Assembly (NCBI RefSeq): GCF_030684315.1
Contig: NC_081359.1
Coordinates: 92,846,838-92,910,837, forward strand
Length of the DNA: 64,000 bases
Direction: 5' to 3'
Origin: Stegostoma tigrinum
Taxonomy: Eukaryota
The translations under genes were made by a program, and so were the position numbers. Below, in pieces: positions 25,832-56,702 of the stretch. Numbering within the stretch: the first letter of the stretch is position 1; each line of letters begins with the position of its first letter. The notes under the pieces were generated by a model. The model saw nothing but the letters and a program-made list of their open reading frames with translations. It did not search any database and was not told where the DNA came from.

Positions 25832-26998
25832 TAGAACATTACAGCACAGTACAGGCCCTTCGGCCCTCGATGTTGTGCCGACCTGTCGTACCGATCTGAA
25901 ACCCATCTAACCTATACTATTCCATGTACGTCCATATGCATGTCCAATGATGACTTAAATGTACCTAAAGTTGCTGAATCTACTACCGTTGCAGGCAAAG
26001 TGTTCCATTCCGTTACTACTCTCCTGAGTAAAGAAACTACCTCTGACATCTGTCGTATATCTTTCACCCCTCAATTTAAAGCTATGCCCCTCGTGTTCGC
26101 CGTCACCATCCTACGAAAAAGGCTCTCCCTATCCACCCTATCTAACCCTCTGATTATTTTGTGTTTCAATTAAGTCCCCTCTCAACCTTCTTCTCTCTAA
26201 CGAAAACAGCCTTAAGTCCCTCAGCCTTTCCTCGTAAGACCTTCCCTCCATACCAGGCAACATCCTAGTAAATCTCCTCTGCACCCTGTTCCAAAGCTTC
26301 CACATCCTTCGTATAACGCAGTGACCGGAATACTCCAAGTGCGGCTGCAGCATAACCTCTTGGTTCCGGAACTCGATCCCTCTATTAATAAAAGCTAAAA
26401 CACTGTATGCCTTCTTAACAGCCCTGTCAACCTGGGTGGCAACTTTCAAGGATCTGTGTACATGGACACCGAGATCTCTCTGCTCATCTACACTACTAAG
26501 AATCTTACCATTAGCCCTGTACTTTGCCTTCCAATTACTCCTACCAAAGTGCATCACCTCACGCTTGTCTGCATTAAACTCCATTTGCCACCTCTCAGCC
26601 CAGCTCTGCAGCTTATCTATGTCTCTCTGCAACCTACAGCATCCTTCGTCACTATCTAGAACTCCACCGACCTTAGTGTCGTCTGCAAATTTACTAACCC
26701 ATCCTTCTACGCCCAGGTCGTTTATAAAAATGACAAACGGCAGTGGACCCAACACCGATCCTTGTGGTCCTCCACTAGTAACTGGTCTCCAGGATGAATA
26801 TTTCCCATCAACTACCATCCTCTGTCTTCTTTCAGCAAGCCAATTTCCGTTCAAAACTGCTATATCTCCCACAATCCCATTCCTCCGCATTTTGTACAAT
26901 AGCCTACTGTGGGGAACCCTTTCGAACGCCTTGCTGAAATCCATATACACCACATCAACCGGTTTACTCTCATCTACCTGTTTGGTCACCTTCTCAAT
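25832..26998 (-). mobile_element. 5'-truncated CR1 LINE, same subfamily as 22290-24545, inserted into a V-SINE
   Basis: ORF 26138-27091 is nearly identical to 23279-24415 (FADDTK). V-SINE halves lie at about 25705-25830 and 27000-27070. Confidence 0.93.
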
Positions 26999-27456
26999 GA
27001 CCTGAATGGGATGCTCTTCAGAGGGCCAGTGTGGACTCAATTGGCCAAATGGCCTGCTTCCACACTGTTTGGGTTTTTTGATTTTGTACATGGATGAAAT
27101 AGTGATTTGGATGAGCTGATCACTGATTCTGGAGTAGTTTATACCCCCATTTAATTATTTCTGGTGAAACAGTAAATTGTTTTGTTATCAAGTGGCTAAC
27201 AAAACAACAGCGGTCGGGATGAGATTCTACGATATTTTTGAGTCTCTTTGGGAGCATCTCCCGGCACGATTGATAGCTGCCAGAAAAGGAAACGTTAACG
27301 TAGGGAAGATGCAAAAACCACCTTTTTAAAGAGGAGCATATGTGCCACATATACAGCAGTAATTCTGGTCACTTTTAAGCTGTGTGATCCTGAAACAATG
27401 TGGTTGAGAAAGATGAACAATTCTCTACTTTTCTCTTTTCCAGTGAGAGTGTTCTC

Positions 27457-36330: not shown

Positions 36331-37066
36331 CTTTGATTGGATTTATTGTCAGATGTACCAATCAATCAATCATTAGCCAAGGCTAAGGGCATGTTTTGCT
36401 TACAGCATAAGCCTGTCCGCTGAGATTATTCCCCTACCTTGGTCCTTCTCTAACTGATACAGTGTGGAACAAAAAAGTGCCTGTAGCTTTGTACCTGGAT
36501 ATTAGAATCTCATTTATTACTAGAGTTACACAAACACTATGCAATCCATTATAACAGTATTGTCCTGGGGAATAGGAACTGGGTATTGTCCTATTTATAT
36601 ACCACTTGGGCTCTGAGGAAAATTACAAATGAACAAATGTGAAAATAGCTACCTGGTTGTGCTGCTAAATAATTAACACTCAGTTTCTACCCGTTCAAGT
36701 TTTACCATTTTCTATCAGTGTCACCTTTTAAGTTTGTACCAGTGAGCAGTAGACTACTTGCTCACTTAAATGTTTTTATCATTTAATCAAGATAAATACA
36801 GCTTAAAACATTGAGGTAATTTTTTTGGGCATAGTTAAATATATTTAGACAAAGAGACACAGAAGAAGGGCATTCATTTTCCTGCGTCATGTTTTCTATG
36901 TTTATTGACTTAACAAGAATCAGGACCTGGGCCTACTCATAAAGCCAAACCCAAAATGTTAGTCTGTCTTTCTCTTTCACGTACTGACAGCTGTGGATCT
37001 GTTTTTGATGTTTCTGTAGTCTTTTTGTCGATTCATCGCTAATGATATTGCTTTGGAAATTTACAG

Positions 37067-37232
37067 GAAAGAAGAAGTCAAAATTCAAATCCTTCAAGAA
37101 GCTATTCGTTAAGAAGAAAAAAAAGGAGTTTATTGTCAACACAGAGAGGAACAGTATGAAGATGAGCCAGTCAGCAGGTGATGTTACAATTCCAGAGTCC
37201 GTCATCCCAGAGCTTGGGGAGAACGACCAAGG
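37067..37232 (+). CDS. CRACDL: CRACDL-like coding exon 2 (GKKKSKFKSFKKLFVKKKKKE...ENDQG)
   Basis: ttacag|GA acceptor, GG|gtaggg donor, phase 1 to 2. KKKSKFKxFKKxFxKKK is the characteristic N-terminal motif of the CRACD/CRACDL family. Confidence 0.88.
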
Positions 37233-38384
37233 GTAGGGCATTTAAAAGTAATGATTTGTAGCAAATCTTAATTACTGGAGCTTATCAATTTTACCCAACA
37301 GTAAGACATTTTCATATCTTATGCTGTTGAATCATATGTGTTGACAATATGTTTTAATCATTTATTTAAAAGGAAGTGAAAATGACATTCTAAAGCCTTT
37401 ATTACAGTGCCAGTGGAATACTCACACGGTAGGCTTTACATGAAATCTGAGACATGCTGTTTATTGTATTATCTATCTACAAGCGCTCCAGTTAGTGGTA
37501 GTTATCATTGCTGGTTCATAAAACAGCCATCCTAATTATTTTGGAATATGAAAATGAAATCCCATGTTTTGATGTAAAGTGTGATCTTTTTCCGAAAGGT
37601 TCAGCAGGGTTGGTTATTTAGCAGTCGATTGCTGCACCTTCTGTTGTATAATTGCCTGTTAATCAATGCAATTTCTCTAACATCTGCCTCAAATGACAGT
37701 GTTTGATAAATAGCTCACCATTCTCATACATAAATTGCATGAAGAAGCGCCCAGTTAATGATCATGCCTTGACTTGTACGTTATAGATGATGTGACAGCG
37801 AGGACTGCCCTTGCGAATTGATGGGATTGCTTTCTTTAGTCAGTGAACATGACCAGTTAAAAAAACAGTGAAATTTAGCTGAGTCTCAGGAATCTTGTTC
37901 ACATTTAATACGAAATGAAGTATTGTGGGTAAAATGTTAATTAATTTCAAGTCATTATTGTATTAATTTCTGTTGTGATATGTCAGTTTTGTTCTTTCAG
38001 TTTAAAAGGATCTGCTTAAGGCTAACAATAGAGCTGCATTAAGGAATGTAGATTAAACCCCACCAAGCATCTAAAGAAAAATGACTGAGAGTCAAGTCTC
38101 TCACAAAGGGCTGATGCTGAGAGTTAAGAACACTGGCAACAACTTAGGTTATTTTTTAGTGCTTATCTCACTTTTCAGTCTGCTTCCTTTAGTTCAAAAT
38201 TATTCTTTGTGACCTGAAAAAATGGGATTTTGATCATTTTAATTAAGTAATGCAAATAACAGAACAAGATTAGAATTTAGTGCTGAAATAATTGAGGTGA
38301 TCATTTACATGCAGTGATTGTAAATATCGACCTGGACTTCCTCATCCTCTTTGAAGTAGTATTAGTTCTTGTCTGTGTCAGAAA

Positions 38385-39717: not shown

Positions 39718-40850
39718 ACCATTGAATTAAAAGTTCAGAAGAGGCTGTTTGACCCATCAAATCTGCACCAACACAGCTACTCTAAATCTACAGATGTTAT
39801 AGCATTTCAGTTGCTTTTCCAAGTTGTGAGCTTTTCCACCTCAACTACCCACCCAGGCAGTGACTTCCAGACTGCCGCCACCCTCTGGATGAAAATTTTA
39901 TCCTTCACTCCCCTCTGAACTTTCCATCTTTAAAATTATGCCTCCTTGTTGTTGACTCTCCAACTGAGGGGAATAGTTGCTTTCTGTCCGATCTATCCAG
40001 GTCCTTCACAATCTTACAAACCTCAATCAGCTCCTCTGTCAGCCTTCTATACCTGATTGAAAACAGCCTCTCTTCATAACCAATCTTGCTCCATCCCAGG
40101 CAATCTGGTGAGGAACCTCATCTGCAGCCCCTCAGTGCAATCACATCCTCCTTATAGTGTGGTGACCAGAGCTTCACACTGTATTCCAGTCATTGCCTTA
40201 ACAAAGTTTTCTACAGGCCCAACATAATCTCCCTGCTATTATACTTTATGCCATGACTGATAAAGTCAGACCTGTTTTCTGTAGAATTTAGAAGGTAAAG
40301 GGGTGATGTGGCCAAAGTCTTCAAGATAGTGTCAGGAAAAGACTGGGTAGATAAAGTTAAACTGTTTCCACTGGTTGGATGTTCTAGAACTAAGGGGCAT
40401 AGTCTGAGAATTAGGGCCAGACTGCCCAGGAGAGATGTTGGGAAGCACCGCTATATCCCTCTTTTGAGTACTACCATGTCTTGTTGCTTCTTTCAAAGCG
40501 CATTACCTCTCATTGATCAGGTTAAAGTTCATCTGCCATTGACCTGCCTATCTGACCAATCTGTTTTATATCCTGTAACCTAAGGCATTCTTTCTCACTG
40601 TCAACTGCTTGGCCAATTTTCATGCCCACAAACTAACTGCAATGAGTTTTCTTCTATATCATTTATCCATATCAGGAGCAAATAAGGGATTCAACGCTGA
40701 TCCCTGTGGTACACCACTGATCACCAGCCTGCAGTCTCATACAAACAGCCTTCTACCACCACCCTCTGCCTCCTACCACTCAGCCAATTTTGAATCCAAC
40801 TTGCCTGGCTCCCATGTGCTTTTGTCTTCTTTATCAGCCTTTATCATGAA
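39718..40850 (-). mobile_element. Decayed CR1 fragments (mostly minus; inner plus piece at about 40267-40450)
   Basis: Reverse CR1 3' UTR at 39720-39900; gatccctgtggtacaccactg (SGVPQGS) near 40700. Confidence 0.6.
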
Positions 40851-41071
40851 TAGCAGGACTGGGCTGTGTACAAAATAGTGAATTTTTGCATACAGCAGCC
40901 TGTCTTTCCTTTTGCATCCAATTGGAATTAGGTTTGCATTTATGTTTTTACAATTATGTTACTTACCAATAACTATACCCAACTATTCCTGCTTTAATCT
41001 GCTTAGACTGCTTACTTCAATTGCATAAGAGTCTGTGCTGTTCTTTATTTAACAATATGTTCCAGAACAAA

Positions 41072-41380
41072 GGGGCGGCATGGTGGCTCAGTGGTTAGCA
41101 CTGCAGCCTGATAGCACCAGGGACCCAGGTTCATTTCCAGCCTCGGGCTGTCAGTGTGGAGTTTGCACATTCTCCCTGTGTCCATGTGGGTTTCCTCTGA
41201 GTGCTCCGGTTTCCTCCCACAGTCCAAAGATGTGCAGGCTAGGTGGATTGGCCATGCTAAATTGCCCGTAGTGTTCAGGGGTGTGTGCGTTATGGGGGGA
41301 TGGGTCTGGGTGGGATGCTCCAAGGGTTGGTGTGGACTTGTTGGGCCAAAGGGCCTGTTTCCACACTGTAGGGATTCTAC
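41072..41380 (+). mobile_element. HE1-like V-SINE, full length
   Basis: gggcggcatggtggctcagtggttagcactg (A-box), V-domain gtggagtttgcacattctccc...gtccaaagatgtgcagg, tail ccacactgtagggattct. Confidence 0.9.
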
Positions 41381-42472
41381 GAATTCCCTTTTCTCATCAA
41401 AGTGCAAGTAATACATTTCGCATTTCTACTTACCCCTTCAAATGGAATTCATCATCTTTTTGATGAAAATTTTCCCTGTTTCCGTTCGGTTTCATTCAAC
41501 CGCATCATTGGTTATGCAAAAGGATAGTTGATGGTTACTTAATTAGCACATACTGAAATTTAGATACTTGGGCAATTGGTAATTTGATTTAATTTTTCTA
41601 ATGTGGTTGAAGTTTATATTTAGATAAATGAATTTAATTTTCGCAGAATAAGACTGCTTATAAAATATGGAATTCTGCCACAATACTAACAAAGTAATTG
41701 CAATGAATGTGGAGGAGCTGAGAATGCAAAGTCTCTGGCTCTCTTTCTGAGAATAGTTCATATATATTGTGAAAGAGCTGTTAATACCGGATACAGCAGT
41801 GGTTCTGTGACCTGCTTTTGTCTTGCACTTCCCTCCCCCTTCCCCAGAAACCACCTTGGTGCTGTGTTGGGTGGAAAACCTGCTCTTTGTAACGTGCCGT
41901 CTTTCGGTCTCCCCGAGTTGCAAAGCTTCCTCCTGAGAATGGTTAAAACATCTGGAATGTACCCTGTGATACATCAGGGCAGTGCTTTGGAGGGTTTGGT
42001 CTCCGGAATCATCACATCGCTTTTGGACTTTGTCAGAGACTGAAAAGATTGCCGCGGGAATAATCAAGAACAAGCAGCATCCTCTTTATCTTGATGTTGG
42101 TGTATTCATCATTTTTGGATATTGCGTTTTTGTCCACCCTGATATGGCCTGTGTGGGTTTTGTGTGTTTCTTACAGCATTTTGATTTCTACTGCATAAAA
42201 TAGCATAATGTCAGAGTTTAAAGCACCTAGCCTTTAAACGTGTTCAAAATACTAACGGTAAAGGGATTTAACAGTGAATTTTGCTCAGCTATGAATGTTT
42301 AGTGGCCGACAGCATTGTCAAATATTCTAATGTTGAACTCCCATGATACAACACAGCTTCTGCTGACCATTAACTATGTTGTAAATGGAACAAATTATCT
42401 CAACACAATGTTGTTGACTTTTTGTGTAGCTACAGCATATGGTACAGTAGTCTTGTTTGTTTCCTCTTGTAG

Positions 42473-42611
42473 TGCTTACAAAATTATCATGGGAACTAGA
42501 GCCCTGTCACACGACAGTATCTTCATCCCAGACACATCTGTGCAGCAACCTGTTAAGCCTGTACGAGTGTTTTCCCAGGAGAGTGTCTCTGGACCTATCA
42601 AAGCTTTACAG
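42473..42611 (+). CDS. CRACDL: CRACDL-like coding exon 3 (AYKIIMGTRALSHDSIFIPD...PVRVFSQESVSGPIKALQ)
   Basis: ttgtag| acceptor, cag|gtaatg donor, phase 2 to 0. RALSHDSIFIP and PVRVFSQE..IKALQ are CRACDL motifs. Confidence 0.92.
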
Positions 42612-44049
42612 GTAATGATCAAGTAATATCTATGAACATATGCTTTAACATCATAAACATAATTTAATTTATTTTTGTGTGCAAGTTTGCCTGGGTGACC
42701 GTACCAAGGATTATAACCATAGTGAGTCGCCCTTAATGCAGTCAAAACCAGGTTGCGTATTAACTTGTGAATCCTTCCAACCGTACACAATGGCAGGCAG
42801 TGGGAGTGGGAAAGATTCCTGGTCAGCCACGCGTTGGAAAGAAATTGGAGAATTTTCTTCTAATTAACCTGTTCAGGTATGGACCCTGTACCATCACTGC
42901 CCATAGCTCCAGTCGACAGTCTGTGTATAAAAGTGCTTGCCATGTCAACAGGCTAGACACATTGGCAGGGGCTTGAGGTGTTCAGTTTGCTGTATGCCAG
43001 TGTGCATCGGATGGTGCTAACAGTGGATTATGGTGGCTCAGTGGTCAATTTCTTGCCCCACCCATGGTGGAGACCGTGGTACTGTGGGTCAGACCCCTCC
43101 TTTAGCTGAGACCTGAAAAAGAAATAGCCTGACTCCATTGTGAGGCCAGTCAGAAAATAGTCTTCTTTAGTCCATGGAACATTTCCAAAGAGCTCATTTC
43201 TAACCTTGCTTCACATTCTCATGAGTGTCCTTTCCATCAAGGGTCACTGAATAGTGATTAGGAGCAGGTATGAGTTTATATTCTAATTTCCAGGAAAGCC
43301 ATGCAGCAACAGTAGCTTTTTAGTTCAATTCAAACAATACTATCACTGCCTAAAAGATGGTTATAAAATCACCACTGTGGAGGTATGACCTAACACTGAA
43401 CACTTTTTGATAACCCTACCGTTATTTCCCCCATTTGTCACAATCAGTATTTCTGAACGCCCAGTGATCTGTAACTTGAGCTGAGGACAAGTAGGTATCC
43501 AACAATGGAGATTGACTCTGGCCCGTAGGCAGTTTACTCACATTAGTTATGCCGTGCCATGATTACTATGTCAATGTTAATCCTTATGGCAGATCTACTT
43601 CCCAGTAATGTCATCCCTTTTTTTTTTACTGCATTATGTTGAGCTACTAATCAAATAAACTGTACAAGCCTCGCCAATATTCAAGCTTGAAAAATAAAAA
43701 AAATCTCTGACCCTATTTGACAAAAATATGGGCATTACCTCAAATGCATTATTTATATGGCCCTTATTGACAGTTTTCTTTTGACGTAATTTCCCAATAT
43801 GTTTACTTATGAACTGCTTGCCTCCTGATGATTCTCCTGGGATAATGCTTATTGACAAAGGTAGGCGCTCACCCCGCCACACTCCTGCAGAGAAAATAGC
43901 TGAGAGGGCTGACGTAAGATTATTTGAAATTCATGTTAAAAGATTACTTGAGGTACAAAGGGACTTGCAGCGAAAGAAGTCTGATTCTTTGACAAGAAAC
44001 ATATTAATTCATGTGTTTATAAAACACTGCAGGTGAATTAGCTTTCAAC

Positions 44050-44900
44050 AATCACACATGTAACACGATGCAGAGCTGGATGAACACAGCAGGCCGGGCA
44101 CCATCAGTGGAGCAGGAATGCTGACGTTTCGGGTCAGGACCCTTCTTCGGATCCTGATCCGAAACGTCAACTTTTCTGCTCCTCTGATGCTGCCTGGCCT
44201 GCTGTGTTCATCCAGCTCGGCATTGTGTTATACCACCTTTATAGTCCAACAGGTTTATTTGAAAATACAAGATTTCAAAACCTCACAGATAGTAAGAACT
44301 GCTGATGCTGGAGTCGGAGATAATACAGTGTGGAACCTCAGTCCTTCTTCAGGTGTTAGTGAGAGAGATCGTATCAGGCACAGAATTTATAACTAAAAAA
44401 TCAAAGGTTCACACCATTGAGGATGTACTAAACAAACCCAAGATGCTGTTAAATCTTTAATCAGTTAGAAGGTTTTAATTGATTAATTTGTATATGTAAA
44501 TCCCTGAATTTCTTTCGAGTCATGGTCCTGAGAGAACTAAAGGTTTCATCAGTGTAAAGAAGGTCTCACACCTAACATACATTGTCTGACTTAAAATGTT
44601 ACCTCCTCTTTACACTGATGAAACCTTTGATTCTCTCAGGACAGTGACTCGAAAGGAATTCGGGAATTTACATATACATATTAATTAATTAGATTAGATC
44701 ATCTAACTGATTAAAGATTTAACAGCATCTTAGCTTTGTTTCGTACATCCTCATCAATAGTATGAACCTTTTGATCTTTCAGTTATAAATTCTGTGTCCG
44801 ATACTTCCTCTCTCACTAACACCTGAAGGAGGCCTGAGGCTCTGAAAGCTTGTGTTTTCAAATAAACCTGTTGGACTATAACCTGGTGTCATGTAATTTC
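44050..44900. mobile_element. Fold-back PLE family B insert with two nested family A fragments
   Basis: Arms about 44230-44563 and 44601-44885 are inverted. Terminus caaataaacctgttggactataacctggtg. Nested family A hairpin at 44061-44230 and fragment at 44286-44333. Confidence 0.8.
44818..44856 (+). ncRNA. Minimal hammerhead motif (family B), one core substitution
   Basis: aacac-CTGAAGG-aggcctgaggctct-GAAAGCTT-gtgtt with a 5-bp stem I (aacac/gtgtt). The opposite arm keeps CTGAAGA. Confidence 0.5.
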
Positions 44901-44933
44901 TAATAGTTTGAGAGCAAACCTTGACCAGGTTTA

Positions 44934-45250
44934 GGGCGGCACGGTGGCTCAGTGGTTAGCACTGCAGCCTCACCGGTCCAGGGACCCGGTTCGATTCCAG
45001 CCTCCGGCAACTGTCTGTGTGGAGTTTGCTCATTCTCCCCGTGTCTGCGTGGGTTTCCTCCAAGTGCTCCGGTTTCCTCCCACAGTCCAAAGATGTGCAG
45101 GCTAGGTGGATTGGCCATGCTAAATTGCCCATAGTGTTCAGGGGTGTGTGGGTTATAGGTGGATGGGTCTGGGTGGGATGCTCCCAAGAGGTGGTGTGGA
45201 CTTGTTGGGCCGAAGGGCCTGTTTCCACACTGTAGAGAATCTTATCTAAT
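44934..45250 (+). mobile_element. HE1-like V-SINE, full length
   Basis: gggcggcacggtggctcagtggttagc, ggttcgattcc B-box, V-domain, tail atctaatct. Confidence 0.9.
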
Positions 45251-46289
45251 CTTTATACAGCCACATCTAGAATACAGTACTATTAGACTCGTTATGTCAC
45301 ATTGCTATATAAGATCTTTATTAATATCAATATCAATGCGAAACCAAACAGCCTGCATCAGTGTTTTCGTGACTGAATTATCACTAAATCATTAGTGCTC
45401 CTAAATTCTCCTGGTGGTCGTTCCATCCAATAGCAAACCTGCAGCTACTCAAAGTGCAGTAGAATATGCAACCACATCATTTGGAATTTGTCCTCCACTG
45501 GTTGACTTAACCCAGTGTCCTGTAAAAGTTCATCCAGTGAGGACAAGATATTTAATAAAAGTTAAAGTGAACTTCCATGTTGACTGAGCACCCATGTGTT
45601 ACAGTCGGTAAACATCTGTCAGGATTAGATGTGTGGGAAGCTGTGGTGAGATCAGAAACTGGTAGATCCTTGTGTAGGGTAACATTCAGAATTTCACTTT
45701 ACTGACATAAGTCCTTTTTAGAGGTGACGTTATCCTTCCCTGTTTATTCTCCCAATCTGGGATATTGGGAGTTCCCTTACTACTCTGCAGACTATAGTAG
45801 GATCATCGATTTTAAAAGCATTTTTAAATCTCCAACAAATTAAAAACCTGTCAATTTTAGACTGGAAAATTTCAGCTGACCGGTAGTTCAGATGTTACTA
45901 TGCAGCATATACTCTGTTAGAACTGCAATCTTTCTGATCTGTTCTGCTCCTCCTGCTCTTCCACCTGCTCCCAACCATCCCTTTAATTGGCCAAGTCAGT
46001 ATTGCGTTGAGTTTTTGAGAGTTTTCGCAGTGAGGCTCGTGAGATTTCTCACAATATATTATGAAAAGTGCCTCATTGTTTCTCTACAACACCCCTAAGC
46101 TGTGTCTCGCATCCAATTTTATGCCCCGCCTGACCATGCCCTGGTCCCAGAACAACTTGCGATTCAGCAGGTATCGGCCAAAATGTGACATTCCTTGTGC
46201 TTGTGCCATCTTTGAAAGCCTGCTGTGCATCTTGATGGGCACTGTCAGCCCGGAGCCACCCAGCACTGTTGCTGACATTTGCCATGGAC

Positions 46290-46530
46290 GTGGCAGACAG
46301 GGGGAAATCACTTTGTTTCACAGACTTGGAGATTATACTGGACAGGATGTTGCCAATGTGGGACCTCTCCTTCTTCAGAACCAGCAGTGAAGGCCATAGC
46401 ACTGGGCCATGCCAGCCTGGCCAGAGGTTGCCACCCAGGTTGGAGCAGTGTCAAGTGGGACTCTTGGAGGAATGCCCAGCACTGTAGGAAGACTGTCACT
46501 GTCCTTTTCCCCTTCCCCAGAGTAAGTGTC
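46290..46530 (+). mobile_element. Decayed PIF/Harbinger Myb/SANT-like ORF relic
   Basis: Across frameshifts: CFTDLEIILD...PAWPEVATQVGAVS..WRNAQHCRKTV, followed by a gtaagt donor-like site. Confidence 0.5.
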
Positions 46531-46946
46531 ACCATCTTATCTCTGATACCTTGCACTTTATCTCTGTTATTGTACCCATCTCCCCTGCTCTACCACTCTT
46601 GCTGTTCCCTGTAACACCTTCCTTCGCTGACTTTCACCCACCCTAAACCCCTGACCAGACGTACCCTGTGTCCTCACTCACTGTGCCACCCACCCTTATC
46701 TCCTGCAAAATCTGCTCCCCTCCCCCATCTCACTCCATGAGGAAAATAACTCACAGCAGAACAGAAAGAGCCAGGACAGCCTCTGGTAGCAGAGGCTACT
46801 GTTGACTTACTGGGCTGAGATCCTGAGTGAAGAATATCTCCCTTGGCTGGCTTGTTGACTGTCATGACAAGTTTCTTGGGTCTTTTTCTGCACTACAGGG
46901 TAAGGCTGTAGTAATATGGGCCTCTAGTTCAGGGGAAAAGCACTAA

Positions 46947-48229
46947 AAGGAAAAGTGCTGAGATGGATCAGTTAAAAGACTGACCTTTGTCCCCATGCAT
47001 TGTGATATTTTGGGCCCTCTAGCCCTCACACCCTACCTCTACCAACTCCCCATGCAGCCTCAATACCAATTTATACCCTTGTGGTCCCTTGACCTCATGC
47101 CAGTCTATTGCCAAATTAGGGCCTTTCCATGCCCATTCACTGTGTACTTTGTGAAGAACTGATCAGCTACACAGTAATGATTGCATGTGCAGAACTGCTC
47201 ACAAATGCTATTTACAAATCTTCTTTTGAAAAAACTAATGTTCTTAGAAACCCTACTGGCGTGTCAATGAGACGGTCAATTACAGTATCAATAGCAGTGG
47301 TTTCAAGCATGTCACAACTCTTAATCTTGTACAAATAAACATTAAACATTTGAGACCTTGATAAAATATATCACAGGAATCAGACATCAACCAAGCAAAG
47401 ACAACAATTCTCTCCAGCAGTCAAAACAGAACACCTTTTGAGATAATACTTTTTATGACTCTGGGCTCTCAGGAAAGTCTCATTTTGTACTTTTTCGAGT
47501 AGCTCCACACATGCCATCATTATGTTAAGGCCTATTGTGTCTGTATGTAATTTAACAGTAAAATAAAGTGATCACAGTCTTGTCAGACCATAGGGCTGCT
47601 GATTCATTAGAGAAAAGTAGTGAGTTTAACCTGAGAGCCGTCATGCCTCTGGGAGGGGAGAGGTAGTGAAGGCAGGTGATCTGCCTGAAATAAAGCATAG
47701 CAGCAGGATATAACAAAACTGTACCAAAACCTCTTTCACCATCACTCTGAAGGCCATGAGCAGCAAGTCATGGAGGGGTTGACAAAACCTGACAAAAATT
47801 GTCAGGGATAATGGGAACTGCAGATGCTGGAGATTCCAAGATAATAAAATGTGAGGCTGGATGAACACAGCAGGCCAAGCAGCATCTCAGGAGCACAAGG
47901 AAAAGTGCTGAGATGGATCAGTTAAAAGACTGACCTTTGCCCCATGCATTGTGATATTTTGGGCCCTCTAGCCCTCACACCCTACCTCTACCAACTCCCC
48001 ATGCAGCCTCAATACCAATTTATACCCTTGTGGTCCCTTGACCTCATGCCAGTCTATTGCCAAATTAGGGCCTTTCCATGCCCATTCACTGTGTACTTTG
48101 TGAAGAACTGATCAGCTACACAGTAATGATTGCATGTGCAGAACTGCTCACAAATGCTATTTACAAATCTTCTTTTGAAAAAACTAATGTTCTTAGAAAC
48201 CCTACTGGCGTGTCAATGAGACGGTCAAT
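46947..48229 (+). repeat. Near-perfect direct duplication, 46947-47280 / 47897-48229
   Basis: Line-by-line comparison shows identity except one missing T (tttgtcccc vs tttgcccc). Confidence 0.95.
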
Positions 48230-48296
48230 GTGCTCCTGAGATGCTGCTTGGCCTGCTGTGTTCATCCAGCCTCACATTTTAAAAATTGTCAGGGAT
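47794..48296. mobile_element. Fold-back PLE family A insert whose centre is a copy of 46947-47280
   Basis: 16-bp TSD aaaaattgtcagggat (47794-47809, 48281-48296), perfect 53-bp inverted arms, 333-bp internal duplicate. Confidence 0.85.
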
Positions 48297-49215
48297 TGCT
48301 TAGAGACACCTATCCCTGTGATGACCAGGTCAGCTGGCTATATGCACCTTCTCCCATGCCAACAAAGGTTGGTAGTACTGGCAGTGAGGGGGGGGACCTG
48401 GAATTGGGTTCTGCCCACTTTTTAACGACTCTGAAGTTGTGACACTGAAAATGCAGGCGGGAGACCCTTTTGTGGTGACGGTTAAATGCAGGGCTGTCTC
48501 TTAAACATCTAGAAAGAATTACTGTGTGTCACTGTTTTGATTTTAACCAACTTTGATTTTTTTAATCTTAATTGCTGTCCAGCTATAATAATTATATGCA
48601 CTTTGAATTAAATCCACTGAAGGCTACATGTTGGCTGATCGGCTTAGAACAGGAGTCATTACAGTCCATCTCTGCATGCTGCTACAAATAATGCGAAATG
48701 GGTTGTGTGTTTTGGTTCTGAATTCAAGGCACCAAAGCAAGCTTATCAAAAGGAATGTAAACTTCAGGATCTCAAAAAGGGTCAAAGGTTTTTTCTCATT
48801 AATCTTCATGACTGCTGTGCAGTCATGTGTATAATGTTTAACACATGATCAAATCCATCCCACTTGTTCAAGATGTGTAAGATAGCTAGTGGGAACAACC
48901 AAACTAAGACATCAAAGGCCTTTAATAAAGTCTGAACTTTCTTTTATACAGAATCTACCTCCCTTATTCTTGATCCACCATCACTGAACATAACAATGGC
49001 GGAGTGTTCATGGCCACTATTCACTTTGAACAGTTTTACTTAAGAGTGGGTCTGTGATTGATCAGCTTTCATGTACAACTGACTGTAACTGATTAAAAGA
49101 TGTTTGTGAGGGCAGTGAAACATATAACAATAGGCCAGTCAGGGCTCTTGCTGATAATCCAACATTTAATTCTTAAAACAAAATCAAAATAAATTTCTTT
49201 TTATATGTGTTGCAG

Positions 49216-49377
49216 TTAAAGGTACAGCAAAACGTTAAAGTGGGACCACCCCCAACATTGATTCCAGCACCAAAGATGGATGATGCTGGTGCTAGTTCTG
49301 AAGACGATGGATTACCTCAGAGTCCTCCACAAAGCTCCCCTCTTCATGAAATCTCAACACCGAGCTACTTAACCAAG
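49216..49377 (+). CDS. CRACDL: CRACDL-like coding exon 4 (LKVQQNVKVGPPP...AGASSEDDGLPQSPP...YLTK)
   Basis: ttgcag| acceptor, aag|gtacaa donor, 162 nt, phase 0/0. SSEDDGLPxSPP motif (DUF4592 region) favours CRACDL over CRACD. Confidence 0.9.
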
Positions 49378-51120
49378 GTACAAAGCTCTCAATGTCTGAT
49401 TATTCAAATAATTTTAAATGCAATAACAAGACGACTAAGCAATGGCTATGTGATCCAGCACTCCCAGTGGGAAATAATGCTTTCAGGGAGTGCATCCTAG
49501 AAGACCAGGATGTGTGCATTACTCCTAATTGGGAGGATCTGTTCCTGAAGTCATTTTTTCTATTACATTGTGTAATCACAAGAGATTGAGTGGCTTATCA
49601 ATGAAACAGTGCCACTACTGGGAATCAAGGTGGGGGTCATTTTCAAGGTAGTGTGAAATGGGAAAATTCTGATCAGCCGCAATTTTACAACCCGACTTCC
49701 ATCTCTGAAAATAAGGAGAGGCATATAATGGACAGCTGATCCATTGTCACTCATTTTGCTGTCAAAACTATTCCAGTGCTTTCACTGAGAAAGTAAGTGT
49801 GTTTGCCTTTAAAATGATGCAAAGATTTGTCTTGGACAGTTAACCGACACAGAGAGAAAATGGTACAACCTGGGGACGGTGTCACGTGAAGCCTTACACC
49901 TCCCCACTGTAAATTCCAAATTTAAAGCAGACCAAAGGCAAATTACAAACTGTCCATTTTCAAAAAGAAATGACAAATTTGAATCGAAACCTTTAATGAG
50001 AACAGAAGGTCTCGACTCGCATCATTAAGTTGTCTTTTCACTTGTCAGGTATTGGCAGCTGCTTTGCATTTCTGGCATCATTTTCTTTCAGTAAGAATAT
50101 GATTAACATGTTGAATGAACAATATAAAGAGGAAGAGCTACTTAATTACATTATGCGTTGCTAAATAATTTCTTGCTACAACATAGTAGAACTCATCAGT
50201 TGGCTCCAGTCTGCATCTCTCCAGGAGGTTGCATGTGTCCTAGTCCATTTTTTTAAAAGTTGAATTTAATTGAATTTTCAATAAACATATTTGTGCCTTT
50301 TAATGCATCTTACATTATTTAATTCCCAGTTTTTTATTTGTTCCCCAGTTTCTGTTAAGTACAGACAGATGCTCCTAGCTACTAGCTTTTGTTACAATGT
50401 ACCTCCATTGTCACTCAAACTAGGTACTGGGCCTTTGCCAGAACAGGGGAGATCCTGTGTTAGAGTCAGCACCAGAGGCATCCGTTCCTGTGGGAGGTTA
50501 TTTCATTTTTTTATGCCTCTCACAACCAGTTTTGAGCAACAAAATAAATTTTTATACTGAAGGGTCCAATAAGTACTATCAGAATTCCAGCCCCCTCCCC
50601 CCAGGGCATTGTGGGTCTACCCAGCAGTGGACTGCATCAGTTCACAAGATGGCAGCTTAGCATTACCTCTAGGGACACACCATAAATGCTGGCTCAGTCA
50701 GCCCGCACCCATCCTGTGAGTGAATTAAAATGAAACTATTCCGGGATGAAAAGCACTTCACCTAAATAAATGGGAGTGCAGACTGGGCATGTGCATACCA
50801 TGTCCTCATGCCCTAAACAGTGGCTTTACATGGGCCAAAACCAGGAACTGGAATTATACCACGGCCAGTTTCCTCTTGGGTTGCTACAAGGAGAGGAGTG
50901 CCAAATTATGGAAGTACATTCTTTATTGATTGATTAATTTGGATCCCCAAGAGGCTGGAATGTATAAAGGCACATGTGTGGTACAAATGAGGAGCCTTGG
51001 TATCTATGGCAAGAAAGGGTACTGTTGTGGTGAAGTGGCAGTGTCCCTATCTCTGTACCGGGCAGCCCGTATTCAAGTTCTACCTGCTCCAGAGGTATGC
51101 CATAACGGGACTAAACAGGT

Positions 51121-51348
51121 CGATTAAAATAATTGTATCAGAGATAATGGGAACTGCAGATGCTGGAGAATCCAAGATAATAAAGTGTGAAGCTGGATGA
51201 ACACAGCAGGCCAAGCAGCATCTCAGGAGCACAAAAGCTGACGTTTCGGGTCTGATGAAGGGCCTAGGCCCGAAACGTCAGCTTTTGTGCTTCTGAGATG
51301 CTGCTGGGCCTGCTGTGTTCATCCAGCCCCACACGATTAAAATAATTG
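51121..51348. mobile_element. Fold-back PLE family A insert at the end of a short SINE
   Basis: 15-bp TSD cgattaaaataattg (51121-51135, 51334-51348); about 66-bp inverted arms around a hammerhead. Confidence 0.85.
51252..51279 (+). ncRNA. Minimal hammerhead ribozyme motif
   Basis: CTGATGA-a-GGGCCTAGGCCC-GAAAC-GTC. Confidence 0.6.
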
Positions 51349-51789
51349 CATAGCAGGAAATCAAGGGTGTACTTAATCACTAGATATTCTGGGCTTGATT
51401 TGACACAAGATGGGGAGGCTCATTAAATCAAGTGGACAGCACGTCTGCTGCCCTTCTGCCCATCCTTGCCCTGACCATAACTGGATCTTAGCAGCAGTAG
51501 TGTCGGGTGGTCTGCCCACTAGTAGTCCTTTAAGAGAGTATTTATTGACCATTTGCTTTTCCCTGTGCAGTCTACTGGCAGCCATTGGAGGATCTTTCGT
51601 GTACAGGCCTACTGAGCTCATTGGAGAGCTCCACGGTTTTACCCCACTGCAGAAAGTCCTCCTACCACCTTTCGCCACTCCCCTCCCCTGTCTCCGTGGC
51701 CTCTGAACCGTGAGTTCCCTTAAAGGGGTCTGTCAGCTTGGTGCCTGGCGAGACTCCCAAACATAACTTAATGAGCTGGACGCATTAAG

Positions 51790-51920
51790 GACTGCACATG
51801 CTGGAAGCTAGAGTCAAGTAATATGGGACTGGGAAGCACAGCAGGTCAGACAGCATCCAAGGAGCAGGGAAGTCAATGTTTTGAGCCAAAACCCTTCATC
51901 AGGACTTTCCAGCTCCACAT
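51790..51920 (-). mobile_element. PLE terminal fragment (family A variant) with decayed hammerhead at 51871-51906
   Basis: Reverse complement agtc-CTGATGA-agggttttggctc-AAAAC-ATT-gact: 4-bp stem I, GAAA mutated to AAAA. Confidence 0.55.
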
Positions 51921-52603
51921 ACCGTAGTGAGCCAGGCTGCATGTCTGAAGAACTGGGCAAGTGCCAAACTCTGATTGGCTAGGGTTCTATTAATAGCTTT
52001 TTTAGTTGGGATGGGGAGTTCAGTTCTTCATGTAACTCATCTCTATGTTTTCAGAATAAGTAACATAAAATGAGGTTTCAGAAGCTGCAAACAAAATCCA
52101 AGTCACTTATCAGTTTGCTTTTCATGTTAGAATGTAAAGTTACTGTATGCATTTTAGGTGGAATACATACCAGAATATAATTATTTTAATCAGTATTTGT
52201 GTGAAGTGCATTTAATATCCGAAGTGCAGTCATAGTAAAGCCTTGCTTCCTTGTCACTTTCACCATTTCTCATTGATGGAAACGCTATTGTAAGACCTCA
52301 CCCAAAGTATGCTCCAAGGAGTACTTCAGATTAACATCAGAGGGGCCTAAATTGATTGTTCCAACCTCCCCGTCAGCTCTGTGTTCTTAATCCAGCAAGG
52401 CATTTTGCTGCAAAATGGAGCATGGCCTTTGTATTGAACAAAGGGAAATACTGGAATGAATATTCCTGGCCCATTGGTGACAGTGTGACATGCTGGCAAT
52501 CTGTTTCAGTTAAGTGAATCCAATTGGCGGAGGTAACAAGATAATAAAATGTGAGGCTGGATGAACATAGCAGGCCAAGCAGCATCTCAGGAGCACAAAA
52601 GCT

Positions 52604-52631
52604 GACGTTTCGGGCCTAGACCCTTCATCAG
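52604..52631 (-). ncRNA. Minimal hammerhead ribozyme motif (left arm)
   Basis: Reverse complement is CTGATGA-a-GGGTCTAGGCCC-GAAAC-GTC. Confidence 0.6.
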
Positions 52632-52907
52632 AGAGGGGGATGGGGAGAAGGAACTGGAATAAATAGGGAGAGAGGGGGAGGCGGACCGAAGATGGAGAGT
52701 CAATGGGAGAGAGATTCCCCGAGGTTGGTCCGGAGGGAGGAGGGTATCTCTGATACTATTTTAACCTCACTGCGAAGCCCACCTGAAGAAGTTACCCTCC
52801 TCCCTCCGGACCAACCTCAGGGAATCTCTCTCCCATTGACTCTCCATCTTCGGTCCGCCTCCCCCTCTCTCCCTATTTATTCCAGTTCCTTCTCCCCATC
52901 CCCCTCT

Positions 52908-52935
52908 CTGATGAAGGGTCTAGGCCCGAAACGTC
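52908..52935 (+). ncRNA. Minimal hammerhead ribozyme motif (right arm)
   Basis: CTGATGA-a-GGGTCTAGGCCC-GAAAC-GTC; only about 2 bp of local stem I. Confidence 0.6.
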
Positions 52936-54078
52936 AGCTTTTGTGCTCCTGAGATGCTGCTTGGCCTGCTGTGTTCATCCAGCCTCACATTTTATTATCT
53001 TGGAATTCTCCAGCATCTGCAGTTCCCATTATCTCTGATACTATTTTAACGAGGTAACAATGTGGGTTTTAAGATCAATCCTTTGTACAGCATATTCTAG
53101 AGTCAGCCAAAGGTAAGGGGTATCATAGGAATACCTGTCCCTAGATGATGCTGATCATAATGTGATTAACTTCAGCTAGAGGGAAAGAAAAGTGTTTTAA
53201 ACTTAAATATGAGTCATTAGATGGTATGAAGACAGAAATAGCCAAACTGAACTGGGAAATTAGGTTAACCGATAAGTTGGTCAAGATCCAGTGGCAAACA
53301 TTTAATGAGATATTTCATTTAGCAAATATAGATTTCAATGAGAGAGATTTTTGGAAAAAAAATGCACTGTTCATGGCAGGGCAAAGAAGGTAAGGAGAAT
53401 TTCAAGTTGGAAGAAAAAGTGTTCTAGCCAACTCCAGAACCACCTCGGATCTTACACTACAAAGGTCATGGATCTTATAAATAGAGTTGAAAATGAAAAG
53501 AAAAGTTGTTTAAATATGAGATTACAAAAGACCAGTGATATTGAACTGTATGTATTTTTAAAAGGTGATATCTAACCCAGCCAGAGACTTATCCAACCCT
53601 AGCTTGAAGGAATTCAGTCAATCCTTGTCATTGTATGAGCTGACAGACTGTCCCACAGTTTCACTATTTTCTGGGAGCAGAAGAACATGTAATGTCTAAC
53701 CTAGTTCTGATATGCCCTGGCTTGAACTTGTGATTCCTTGTCATTCTAATCTATTTTGTTGAAACAAGATCTCGCACTATTCAATCTAATTGCTTCTTCA
53801 TCTTGTATAGTTCAGTCAAATTACCTGTAGGTCTCTGCTTCTGTAAAGTGTGGAACCTCAGCACTTTGAGCCTATCTTGGTAAACCACCATAACCACATT
53901 ATGTTGTACGTTTTTGCTATTTTCAGAAATTTACTTTCTAAGCAATTTCTTTTTGTACGTTCTCTCAAAGCTATGTCCGATTGAAAAAACGAGCAATTTT
54001 TTCAGTTTTTTATTCTGTCATTTTGTCCATTTTCATTTCCTATCTTTGACTGAACCTTTTCCTAATTCCATCCCACAG

Positions 54079-54147
54079 TACTCTGACCCTTACAAGAATC
54101 ATAGCTCCTTGACTTTAGGTGGGACAGGCAGCGAAGAAGAAGAGCAG
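54079..54147 (+). CDS. CRACDL: CRACDL-like coding exon 5, 69-nt symmetric exon (YSDPYKNHSSLTLGGTGSEEEEQ)
   Basis: Long pyrimidine tract plus cacag| acceptor, cag|gtaata donor, phase 0/0, in frame between exons 4 and 6. Resembles the SLxLxGxGSEEEE segment of the family. Confidence 0.78.
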
Positions 54148-54438
54148 GTAATAATTCAAAACTCCCAATTTTGGGAGGACCCTCAAAAGCCTACATAGGA
54201 AATAATTAGCTGCGAGCATACCTCTCAACTGTCCCAGTTTAATCAGGAGACCCCTGTATGTTGCTTCAGAAAGCTGCATGTGAGACTGCAAGCAGGCTTG
54301 TTGAATAGTGCTAGAATATTGCTCGCCCATACCAAACAAAGAACCAAATTCCGCCTTTTCAATACCTTTTGAAACTGCTGATTGAGAGGTGTGGTTGGGA
54401 GAGTTCACTCAGTGGACGGTGCGAGTTAAGTCGCAGCG

Positions 54439-54551
54439 TCAGTAACAGAGATGAAGGGCCCGGGCCCGAAACGTCAGCTTTTGTGCTCCTGAGATGCTGC
54501 TTGGCCTGCTGTGTTCATCCAGCCCCACACTTTGTTATCAGTAACAGAGAT
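54439..54551 (+). mobile_element. 85-bp PLE family A micro-insert starting inside the hammerhead
   Basis: 14-bp TSD tcagtaacagagat (54439-54452, 54538-54551) around gaagggcccgggcccgaaacgtcagc...cacactttgtta. Confidence 0.8.
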
Positions 54552-54604
54552 TTTGTGAGGTTAGTTTGTAAATAACACGAAGTTGTCAGAGAGTAGAAGG
54601 TTGT

Positions 54605-54950
54605 TTTTTAATTCATTCTTGGGATGTGGGCATCACTGGCCAGGTCAGCGTTTATTGCCCGTCGCTAAAAGCGGAAAGGACAGTTAAGTGTCAACCATAT
54701 TGCTGTGTGTCTGGAGCCATGTGTCAGACAAGTTAAGGGCAACAGTTTCCTTCCCTATTGGGCATTAGGGAACCAAATGGGTTCTCCTGACAATTGACAA
54801 CAGTTTCGTGGTCGTCCTTCGACTCTTAATTCCAGATTTTTATTTCATTCAAATTCCATAATCAGCCATAGTGGGATTTGAACCTAGGTCCCCAGAACAT
54901 TACCAGGGTCTCAGGGTAAATATACTAGTGATTATATCAGTAGGTTGTCA
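54605..54950 (-). mobile_element. tRNA-derived SINE
   Basis: Reverse complement of the 11945/31680 family; gtgggatttgaacc B-box. Confidence 0.65.
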
Positions 54951-55027
54951 TCTCCACTTCACTGTAGAGGTTTGCCCTGCATGTACATAATGGCACTGAA
55001 AGGATATGAAAAGTAAGGATGTGTCGC

Positions 55028-56702
55028 GATAACAAGATGTCGAGCTAGATGAACACAGCAGGCCAAGCAGCATCAGAGGAGCAGGAAGCTGACGTTTCGG
55101 GCCTAGACGCTGCTTCAGAAATGGGGGAGGGGAAGGGGGTTCTGAAATAAATGGGGAGGGGGGGAGGTGGATAGTTGGTGGATAAAGGAGAAGATAGGTG
55201 GAGAGGAGATAGACAGGTCAAGGAGGCGGGGTTGGAGCCAGTAAAGTTGAGTGTAGGTGGGGAATTAGGGAGGGGATAGGTCAGTCCAAGGAGGATGGAC
55301 AGGTCAAGGAGGTGGGATTGGGCTAGTAGGTAGGAGATAGGGGTGGGACTTTAGGTGGGAGAACAAGTTAGGGAGGCGGGTACGAGCTGGGCTGGTTTTG
55401 GCACGTGGTTGGGGGAGGGGGATTTTGAAGTTTGTGAAGTCCACATTGATACCATTAGGCTGCAGGGTTCCCAAGCAAAATATGAGATGCTGTTTCTGCA
55501 AACTTTGGGTGGCATCGTTGTGGCACTGCAGGAGGCTCAGGATAGACATGTCGTCCAAGGAGGGTGAGTTGAAATGGTTTCCAACTGGAAGGTGCAGTTG
55601 TCTGTTCCAAACCGAGCGCAGGTGCTCCACAAAGTGATCCCCAAGCTACTGCTTGGTTTCCCCAATGTAGAAGAGGCCACATTGGGAACAGCAGATACAG
55701 TTTACCACATTAGCAGATGTGGATCTGTTCGATGTGGAAGGTCTTTTTAGGGCCGGGGATGGGGGTGAGGGGGGAGGTATAGGGGCGGGTGTAGTACTTG
55801 CTCCGGTTGCAGGGGAAAGTGTCGGGTGTGGTGGGGGTGGAGTGGACAAGGGAGTCATGGAGAGAGTGGTCCCTCTGGAAAGCAGATAAGGATGGGGAGG
55901 GAAAGATGTCTTTGGTAGTGGGGTCAGATTGCAGATGGCGGAAGTGTCGGAGGATGATGCGTTGGATCCGGAAGTTGGTGGGGTGTACATGAAGATGAGA
56001 GGGATTCTGTTTTGGGTTTTATTGTGGGGAGCGGGTGTGAGGGATGAGTTGCTGGAAATGCGGGAGACACGGTCGAGGGCGTTTTTGACCATGTGGAGGG
56101 GAAGTTGCAGTCCTCGGAAAAACGAGGACATCTGGGTTGTCCGGGAGCGGAATGCCTCATCTTGGGAGCAGATGTGGCAGAGGCGAAGGAATTGGAAATA
56201 GGGGATGGAATTTTTGCAGGAAGGCAGGTGAGAGGAAGTGTAATCCAGGTAGCTGTGGGAGTTGGTGGGCTTGAAATGGATATCACTTTCTAGGTGGTTG
56301 CCAGAGATGGAAACAGAGAGGTCCAGGAAGGAGAGTGAGGTATCAGAGATAGTCCAGGTGAACTTAAGGTTGGGTTGGAAGGTGTTGGTGAAGTGGTTGA
56401 ACTGTTCAAGCTCCTCATGGAAGCGTGAGGCGGCGCCGATACAGTCATCAATGTAACGGAGGAAGAGGTGGGGTTTGGGGCCAGTGTAGGTACAGAAGAC
56501 GGATTGTTCCAGGTATCCTCCAAAGAGGCAGGTATAGCTTGGGCCCAAACGGGTACCCATGGCCACCCCCTTTGTCTATAGGACATTAGAGGAATTGAAG
56601 GAGAAGTTGTTAAGGGTGAGGAGGAGTTCAGCTAAGTGGATGAGGGGGTCAGTGGAGGGAGACTGTTTGGGCCTGCGGGACAGGAAGAAGTGGAGGGCCT
56701 TT
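55028..56702 (-). mobile_element. 5'-truncated Penelope-like element (RT + GIY-YIG endonuclease, frameshifted) with family A terminus
   Basis: GVAMGTRLGPSY, FLRYIDDCIG, LSFLDL, FKPTNSHSYLDYTSSH, CSQCGLFYIGETK and EHLRSV..PVGNHFNS. Candidate TSD aggatg(t/g)gtcg at 55016-55026 and 56703-56713. Confidence 0.92.

Follow-up and report, generated by a model that had tools for sequence, protein, structure and literature searches.

How a Penelope-like element (PLE) insertion is completed after reverse transcription is an open question in the available text of the papers that address it (PMC11167929, PMC8557442). Within the window (the whole stretch of DNA analysed, 64,000 nucleotides), positions 47794-48296 hold two inverted PLE arms that are flanked by a target-site duplication (TSD) and enclose a copy of host DNA lying a short distance upstream. 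Throughout, 'focal insertion' denotes this PLE-made structure. It raises the question of how neighbouring DNA came to lie between the arms, and its chief interest lies in what it records about the completion of PLE insertions. The features are as follows.

46936-46948, + strand: left flank of the donor, resembling a PLE cDNA end (AGCAC-T-AAAAG versus AGCAC-AAAAG), probable annealing site; from the junction score
46947-47280, + strand: donor, host DNA that predates the insertion and lies 513-847 nt upstream from the TSD; from alignment and from single-copy depth in a related organism (organism A)
47794-47809, + strand: left TSD copy; from a 16/16 repeat match and the empty site in organism A
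47810-47844, - strand: PLE tail of 35 nt, between the two reverse transcriptase (RT) start sites, on the left side only; from repeat comparison
47845-47898, - strand: arm 1, presumably a cDNA primed from the top strand; from comparison with the repeat and the sampled loci
47897-48229, + strand: templated fill, a direct copy of the donor with one T missing, 333 nt; from alignment
48229-48281, + strand: arm 2, inverted, beginning near the second RT start site, presumably a cDNA primed from the bottom strand; from the inverted-repeat match
48281-48296, + strand: right TSD copy; from the direct repeat and the empty site in organism A

Architecture of the focal insertion

The TSD, AAAAATTGTCAGGGAT, is a 16-bp direct repeat identical at 16/16 positions between 47794-47809 and 48281-48296, and its last 8 nt, TCAGGGAT, are similar to the PLE family terminus, TCAGAGAT. 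The arms (47845-47897 and 48229-48281) are 53 nt each and 100% complementary (53/53), and the fill matches the donor at 333/334 positions, a single T being deleted. These values confirm the TSD, inverted arms and copy of 46947-47280 that a first-pass annotation of the sequence had described. That annotation also had both arms stopping at the same base, which is nearly so, but the left arm follows the family one base longer (…CACAA) than the right arm (…CACA). Its placement of the arm ends just ahead of the putative hammerhead ribozyme holds: both lie 5-6 nt before the inferred ribozyme cut, which follows GAAACGTC, and the hammerhead motif is missing from the focal copy, which is truncated before that point. 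The termini had further been likened to terminal inverted repeats (TIRs). The arms are indeed inverted, but they are not symmetric, as the extra 35-nt tail, a concept for PLE ends taken from PMC11167929 as far as its available text describes it, is found on the left only.

Exact overlap between arm and fill amounts to 2 nt (AA) at the left junction and 1 nt (T) at the right. Beyond this overlap, the left flank of the donor had been reported to mimic the PLE sequence at the breakpoint; the likeness is real, with a score this high at only 0.2% of 14,324 local positions, but it was not used base for base, and the right junction has no comparable extended likeness. Folding of the focal element returned the arm pairing again and no further structural information.

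Short reads and the empty site

Four short-read runs were compared as contigs: X9 and X10, both from the window's organism and from one study, and X3 and X8, from two studies of organism A, a relative that is about 93% identical. In each of X9 and X10, the stretch 46947-47280 is matched from end to end by a single contig of 334 nt, at a depth of 38.8 with flanks at 19.7-21.7 in the former and 21.8 with flanks at 7.7-9.5 in the latter. A depth about twice that of the flanks is what a collapsed two-copy repeat would give. In organism A, one contig in each of X3 and X8 joins 47793 directly to 48281 with a single TSD copy, and the donor is at flank depth. The empty site and the single-copy donor together mean that the TSD is true, that the donor is ancestral and that the whole 487 bp was gained in the window lineage. 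Inspection of the orthologous site, which the first-pass annotation had proposed, thus returned one empty TSD in organism A, and the copying direction it had assumed, from donor to insert, is borne out. In the 3.2-Gb genome the fill sequence has two matches, donor and copy, 950 nt apart, in a search that passes over very common words. To judge from the young-subfamily arm and a fill nearly identical to its donor, both insertion and fill are recent.

It is highly improbable that the structure is an assembly or gap-filling artefact. In the De Bruijn contigs of two samples, breaks fall precisely at 46947 and 47280 and the depth is doubled, copy and donor differ by one base, and comparable structures exist at other loci; these observations outweigh the difficulty that assemblers have with palindromes and local repeats, the possibility that the study behind X9 and X10 is the assembly's own source, and the lack, among the contigs listed, of one bridging an arm/fill junction plus unique flank. 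Contig joints that skip the fill were also considered, but these derive from the repeat family at large and are not assignable to the focal locus.

The repeat family

The arms belong to an abundant family: a 33-mer reading through the breakpoint has 132,431 exact genome matches. In one long, broken copy (L036), an RT-like frame is followed in order by a GIY-YIG-like frame. Its Pfam matches (RVT_1, E 0.1; GIY-YIG, E 0.073) were both under the cut-off, with none at 0.001; its Atlas features lie at 0.94-0.97 to HTH_animal/RVT_1 clusters. Sister copies carry CTGATGA-stem-GAAAC-GTC, by inspection a putative minimal hammerhead core; an Rfam search of window positions 40000-56000 gave no hammerhead and only hairpin-driven sub-threshold matches. 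The inferred ribozyme cut falls 25 nt after an ATG whose frame ends after 14 codons. The family also presents Penelope-like traits, namely a one-sided 30-40-nt tail, an inverted 5'-truncated terminal copy and a TSD on insertion. At the sequence level it fits a Penelope-like element as portrayed in the available text of PMC8557442, PMC3846280 and PMC4209133.

We considered CACA/CACAA as a hotspot for arm ends. There are 1,415 arms at CACA, compared with 469 at AAAAG, 2,687 at AAAAGCT (a count in which perfect palindromes appear twice) and 132,431 that continue past the breakpoint, so CACA does not stand out as the dominant stop. The frequent AAAAGCT ends and joins may reflect ribozyme-cut templates or merely the self-complementary AGCT.

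Two further copies lie in the window. That at 51121-51351 is a plain palindromic sister copy with tail, central hammerhead core and a TSD of ~17 nt, and provides an unfilled comparator. The other, at 52529-53066, is a tandem-plus-inverted insertion; its arms are long, its TSD is short, and its centre holds a second pLTR junction. At 53/53 positions its arm agrees with the focal one. Elsewhere, L266:1775-2135 (G000:C4:123606400+) is a TSD-bounded insertion that holds three further tandem arm units. Each of these stops at …CACAAAAGCT, precisely where the ribozyme cut is inferred, and restarts at the second RT start site. This looks like repeated RT jumps off ribozyme-cut RNA ends; for PAc, a PLE studied in vitro, PMC11167929 reports that no RNA reads ended at the cut site.

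Inverted arms as the usual insertion product

The census of the family is a pattern-search sample of ~1 Mb, with loci taken first in contig order. Its first part comprised 20 regions (8 of them hand-picked as close pairs) and 30 loci of 2,346 matches; the second took 30 of 1,415, 30 of 2,687, 30 of 469, 30 of 132,431, 30 of 192, 70 of 165 and 30 of 729 matches. Applied to these loci together with the window, a filter for convergent arms with a TSD of at least 9 nt and both arms starting within the first 62 reference positions left 133 TSD-flanked palindromes, of which three (L128, L059 and one pair at L043) are probable chance TSD pairings. In 129/133 the start of one arm lies at the tail (reference position 1-4), and in 128/133 that of the other at positions 25-44, the second RT start site. 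TSD length is 13-16 nt in 92/133. The stretch 47810-47897 of the focal copy has 33 identical other copies among the sampled loci.

The simplest reading of two fixed arm starts is twin priming, which would yield two cDNAs of identical sequence. According to the available text of PMC11167929, the PAc protein, a predicted dimer, nicks both strands and extends them, using two RT start sites at either end of the tail. For the most part the arms are joined directly, often at self-complementary sequences: AGCT-type joins make up 16/30 and 20/30 loci in two pattern classes, the second being the class of 729 matches with its GGAGC/AAAAGCT joins.

That the focal structure was made by a PLE, as first proposed, is supported, and its arms are the family's usual insertion product. 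Since inverted arms with a TSD are the normal family footprint, the 'TIR+TSD' appearance was not created by the capture.

Recurrence of local fills

A non-PLE centre of at least 10 nt is present in 10/133 palindromes, and a local donor of more than 100 nt in 3/133: the focal locus, L033 and L281. L033 has a 15-nt TSD, arms that match at 61/61 positions and an inverted 243-nt fill whose donor lies 248-490 nt downstream and differs by a 10-nt indel; it was first hand-picked as a pair but was recovered again unprompted as L206. L281 is a probable and older case. Its inverted 128-nt fill (94.5%) has its only other match among the sampled loci 379-505 nt upstream and is embedded in PLE sequence. 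A fourth case, L228, stands outside the 133, its second arm being an 8-nt stub. Here a 225-nt direct copy (99.6%) of an adjacent donor begins in host DNA upstream, crosses the TSD and takes in ~40 nt of the new arm. As the copy includes both TSD and new arm, the template must already have held TSD and cDNA, which points to DNA. The sample thereby supplies what the first-pass annotation had wished to see elsewhere in the genome, further inverted arms enclosing local DNA, at L033, L228 and probably L281.

The donors of all four cases lie within 0.9 kb, a locality that is partly built in by sampled flanks of 1.5-2 kb. Extended junction likeness is strong at the focal locus (0.2%), weak at L033 (5.9%) and absent at L228 (52%). 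Among the 35 palindromes free of truncation-pattern selection the focal locus is the only one with a local fill (0/34 others). Of 116 arms that adjoin non-PLE DNA, 49 had no TSD and no donor found. In a crude test, a local duplicate starts at the arm end in 5/116 arms and at 6/427 random positions, which is not significant alone, so only TSD-enclosed cases count. Overall, the fill rate is probably ~1% or lower, which by extrapolation would give tens to hundreds of fills genome-wide.

Several candidates were rejected. L037 resolves into two independent insertions, of which that on the right has a TSD to itself. L202 was likewise read as two insertions: its 451-nt spacer is single-copy except for an 89-nt repeat, and no TSD was seen. 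At L183 the inverted partner is part of a separate downstream insertion. The match at L190 (G000:C2:40400329+) is an inverted copy of the empty target site 1.3 kb off, 94% identical over 85 nt, which indicates that the PLE entered one arm of an older inverted duplication.

Host gene context

The polarity of the surrounding gene bears on which templates were available, and is set by one exon downstream of the insertion:

49216-49377, + strand: host exon with DUF4592; from Pfam (PF15262, E 3.8e-12), with AG/GT borders read

We take the host gene to be CRACD/KIAA1211-like; an Atlas search with the exon gave no match. The focal insertion is probably within an intron of this DUF4592 gene, where its effect on the host is a 334-nt duplication without sign of function. 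Two coding-looking stretches on the + strand, 37060-37233 and 43830-44000, may be upstream exons of the gene, although a Pfam search with them returned no match. Two other repeats in the window may be mentioned: nested long inverted repeats at 44239-44881, which are MITE-like and outside the PLE family (arms of 47-85 nt, 83-91% complementary), and two inverted 1.2-kb repeat copies (23336-24538 and 25832-27007) that are 90% identical and 1.3 kb apart.

Probable bridging of the two cDNAs

On balance, the focal structure is probably a one-off by-product of insertion, in which a bridge copied from DNA linked two cDNAs while insertion was under way. The PLE protein would make a staggered cut, giving the 16-nt TSD, and RT would be primed from both strands, once at the tail start and once at the second start site. 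Being alike in sequence, the resulting two cDNAs could pair only via short self-complementary words, and a direct join there would be the usual outcome. At the focal locus both cDNAs would have stopped short of the ribozyme site; the 3' end of one may then have been extended by 334 nt on nearby host DNA before it came free and paired with the end of the other cDNA. In the simplest polarity, the short-arm cDNA, paired over 1 nt with the top strand, would prime at 47280, copy away from the break and anneal through the AGCAC/AAAAG likeness at 46947, although the order may have been the reverse. The fill could have been made by the PLE RT or by a host repair polymerase, the latter through theta-type end joining or SDSA-like synthesis.

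The other loci can be accommodated in the same way. At L228, the simplest reading is that the opposite cDNA would have read the top strand of the left end, away from the break; this reading would also fit L033, as a snap-back on its own strand. The focal locus and L033 each allow the reverse reading, so neither tests the polarity scheme. Polymerase theta-mediated end joining would be expected to leave short microhomology at the junctions, where the overlaps are 2/1 nt at the focal locus, 5/2 nt at L033 and 2/0 nt at L228. Among the observations that count against a by-product of insertion, there are only 3 other cases in the pattern-selected ~1-Mb sample, the extended junction likeness is weak or absent at L033 and L228, the focal fill is longer and farther off than is typical for L1, and arms that end within 1 nt of each other, as at the focal locus and L033, are equally predicted by hairpin cleavage of a finished palindrome.

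Such cleavage, already raised in the first-pass annotation, is the basis of a two-step alternative, which we consider rather unlikely: an AGCT-centred perfect palindrome was inserted, its hairpin or cruciform tip was later cut with loss of 5-6 nt per arm, and the gap was repaired from nearby DNA. Perfect palindromes of this kind are common substrates (16/30 loci in one pattern class), but many of them remain unbroken, and the filled focal copy belongs to a very young subfamily in which little time has been available. The matching arm ends at the focal locus and L033 suit the two-step model, yet symmetric ends are common without any fill (within 1 nt in 8/35 palindromes free of truncation-pattern selection), and the ends at L281 and L228 are asymmetric. 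L228 is also readable as post-insertion repair. No intermediate allele appeared in the short-read contigs, which were not suited to reveal one.

The template could also have been RNA. Here the PLE RT, on the short-arm (bottom-strand) cDNA, would have jumped to nascent host pre-mRNA and copied 334 nt of intron before joining. The first-pass annotation had combined priming through the left microhomology with a sense pre-mRNA template, but the two are incompatible: with the host exon on the + strand, a sense transcript templates the bottom-strand, short-arm cDNA only. That polarity is what a bottom-strand primer needs, and in the available text of PMC11167929 the PAc RT starts internally without homology, which fits the 1-nt overlap; co-insertion of a local pre-mRNA is reported once for L1 in the available text of PMC10191854. 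The copy at L228, however, holds a TSD and a new arm, which are absent from any prior transcript, and the donors found lie within 0.9 kb although a transcript offers the whole gene. We therefore regard a pre-mRNA template at the focal locus as quite improbable, and a DNA template as the likelier source of the bridge.

A broader possibility, which we hold to be doubtful, is that priming of both strands, at two fixed sites of the RNA, is routine for a dimeric PLE protein, and that its RT itself jumps to neighbouring DNA whenever the cDNAs cannot pair. If so, the family, with >130,000 exact arm matches, would keep generating inherited local duplications, hundreds in all, each set between inverted arms and a TSD; a few of these could carry exons and a few could re-mobilise via retained RT start sites.

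Comparison with known systems

Pack-MULEs and other Pack-type DNA transposons have inverted ends, a TSD and a host fragment inside. The focal structure shares this outward form, and the first-pass annotation had likened it to a 'Pack' element. It is not one: its arms form the end of a repeat in which RT/GIY-YIG-like coding sequence follows, not the end of a cut-and-paste transposon, and the captured piece shows no dispersal beyond its two genome matches. It also lacks transposase-type TIRs, its tail is asymmetric and its donor is adjacent. Related to this is the idea of a non-autonomous, Pack-like unit in which arms and captured DNA move as one element, for which a precedent exists in rotifer Penelope pLTRs that mobilised an intron-containing gene in trans (PMC3846280, available text). 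We judge it most unlikely for the focal locus, where the arms are ordinary PLE cDNA ends and the search described above gave no genome match to the fill besides donor and copy; in 4/4 cases the donor lies beside its own insertion.

Instead, the focal event is real, recent and recurrent at low frequency, and in its working it parallels the templated insertions of L1, here at a presumed junction of twin priming. The comparisons below follow the available text of the cited papers. In L1 templated insertions, near-target non-element DNA is likewise copied into a new retrotransposon insertion, and an SDSA-like jump of the cDNA has been proposed, with 22 cases given and ~3,598 insertions named in a figure legend (bioRxiv 10.1101/2024.08.27.596794). 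This hallmark, nearby DNA copied inside a TSD-bounded insertion, is present in the focal insertion, L033, L228 and L281. The L1 templates of that preprint are typically <250 bp, within 15 bp and somatic, a typical range rather than a strict criterion, whereas the focal fill is 334 nt, 513-847 nt away and inherited; moreover, the focal fill lies between two overlapping inverted PLE arms, unlike those of L1. Three L1 insertions templated from nearby DNA are described in PMC11702581, and flank foldback as well as the local pre-mRNA co-insertion in PMC10191854. As these papers describe them, non-canonical L1 insertions resemble those of the PLE in that twin priming retains the TSD and the cDNAs are end-joined. 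The twin-primed pieces of L1 are adjacent and mostly non-overlapping parts of the RNA, however, whereas the PLE arms are the same sequence twice, from two fixed starts.

Among PLEs, Penelope of Adineta vaga is similar to the focal insertion in its inverted 5'-truncated pLTR, 30-40-bp tail, TSD and proof by an empty site, and in the capture of unrelated sequence between solo pLTRs with TSDs (PMC3846280, PMC8557442). In contrast to the focal case, no adjoining donor is identified in the available text of these papers, which reads the capture as mobilisation in trans and the palindromes as self-priming on an antisense template. The young copies studied here would record an intermediate with two cDNAs from two fixed starts that are joined at the centre and rarely bridged by local DNA. 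They favour a two-primer origin of the inverted pLTR and tail over self-priming, which is a prediction for the existing in vitro system. In that system, PAc (Poseidon, green anole), both strands are cut and extended from two RT start sites bounding the tail, as appears to be the case here, and the ribozyme cut follows the ATG by 26 bp compared with 25 nt here; unlike here, the available text mentions neither a step that joins the cDNAs nor a templated fill (PMC11167929).

The route had initially been thought undescribed for PLEs. In the literature searched, whose coverage leaves most subscription papers outside, a local donor between twin-primed PLE arms was indeed not found described, but local templates and pre-mRNA in L1 and pLTR capture in rotifers have been published.

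One further locus was considered as a fill and left uncounted. This locus, L198, has a complex structure, and the 22 nt at its centre are like nearby DNA. At L198:1522-2040 (G000:C2:93784107+), a palindromic PLE is accompanied by ~105 nt of flank duplicated in inverted orientation, which resembles the L1 foldback events.
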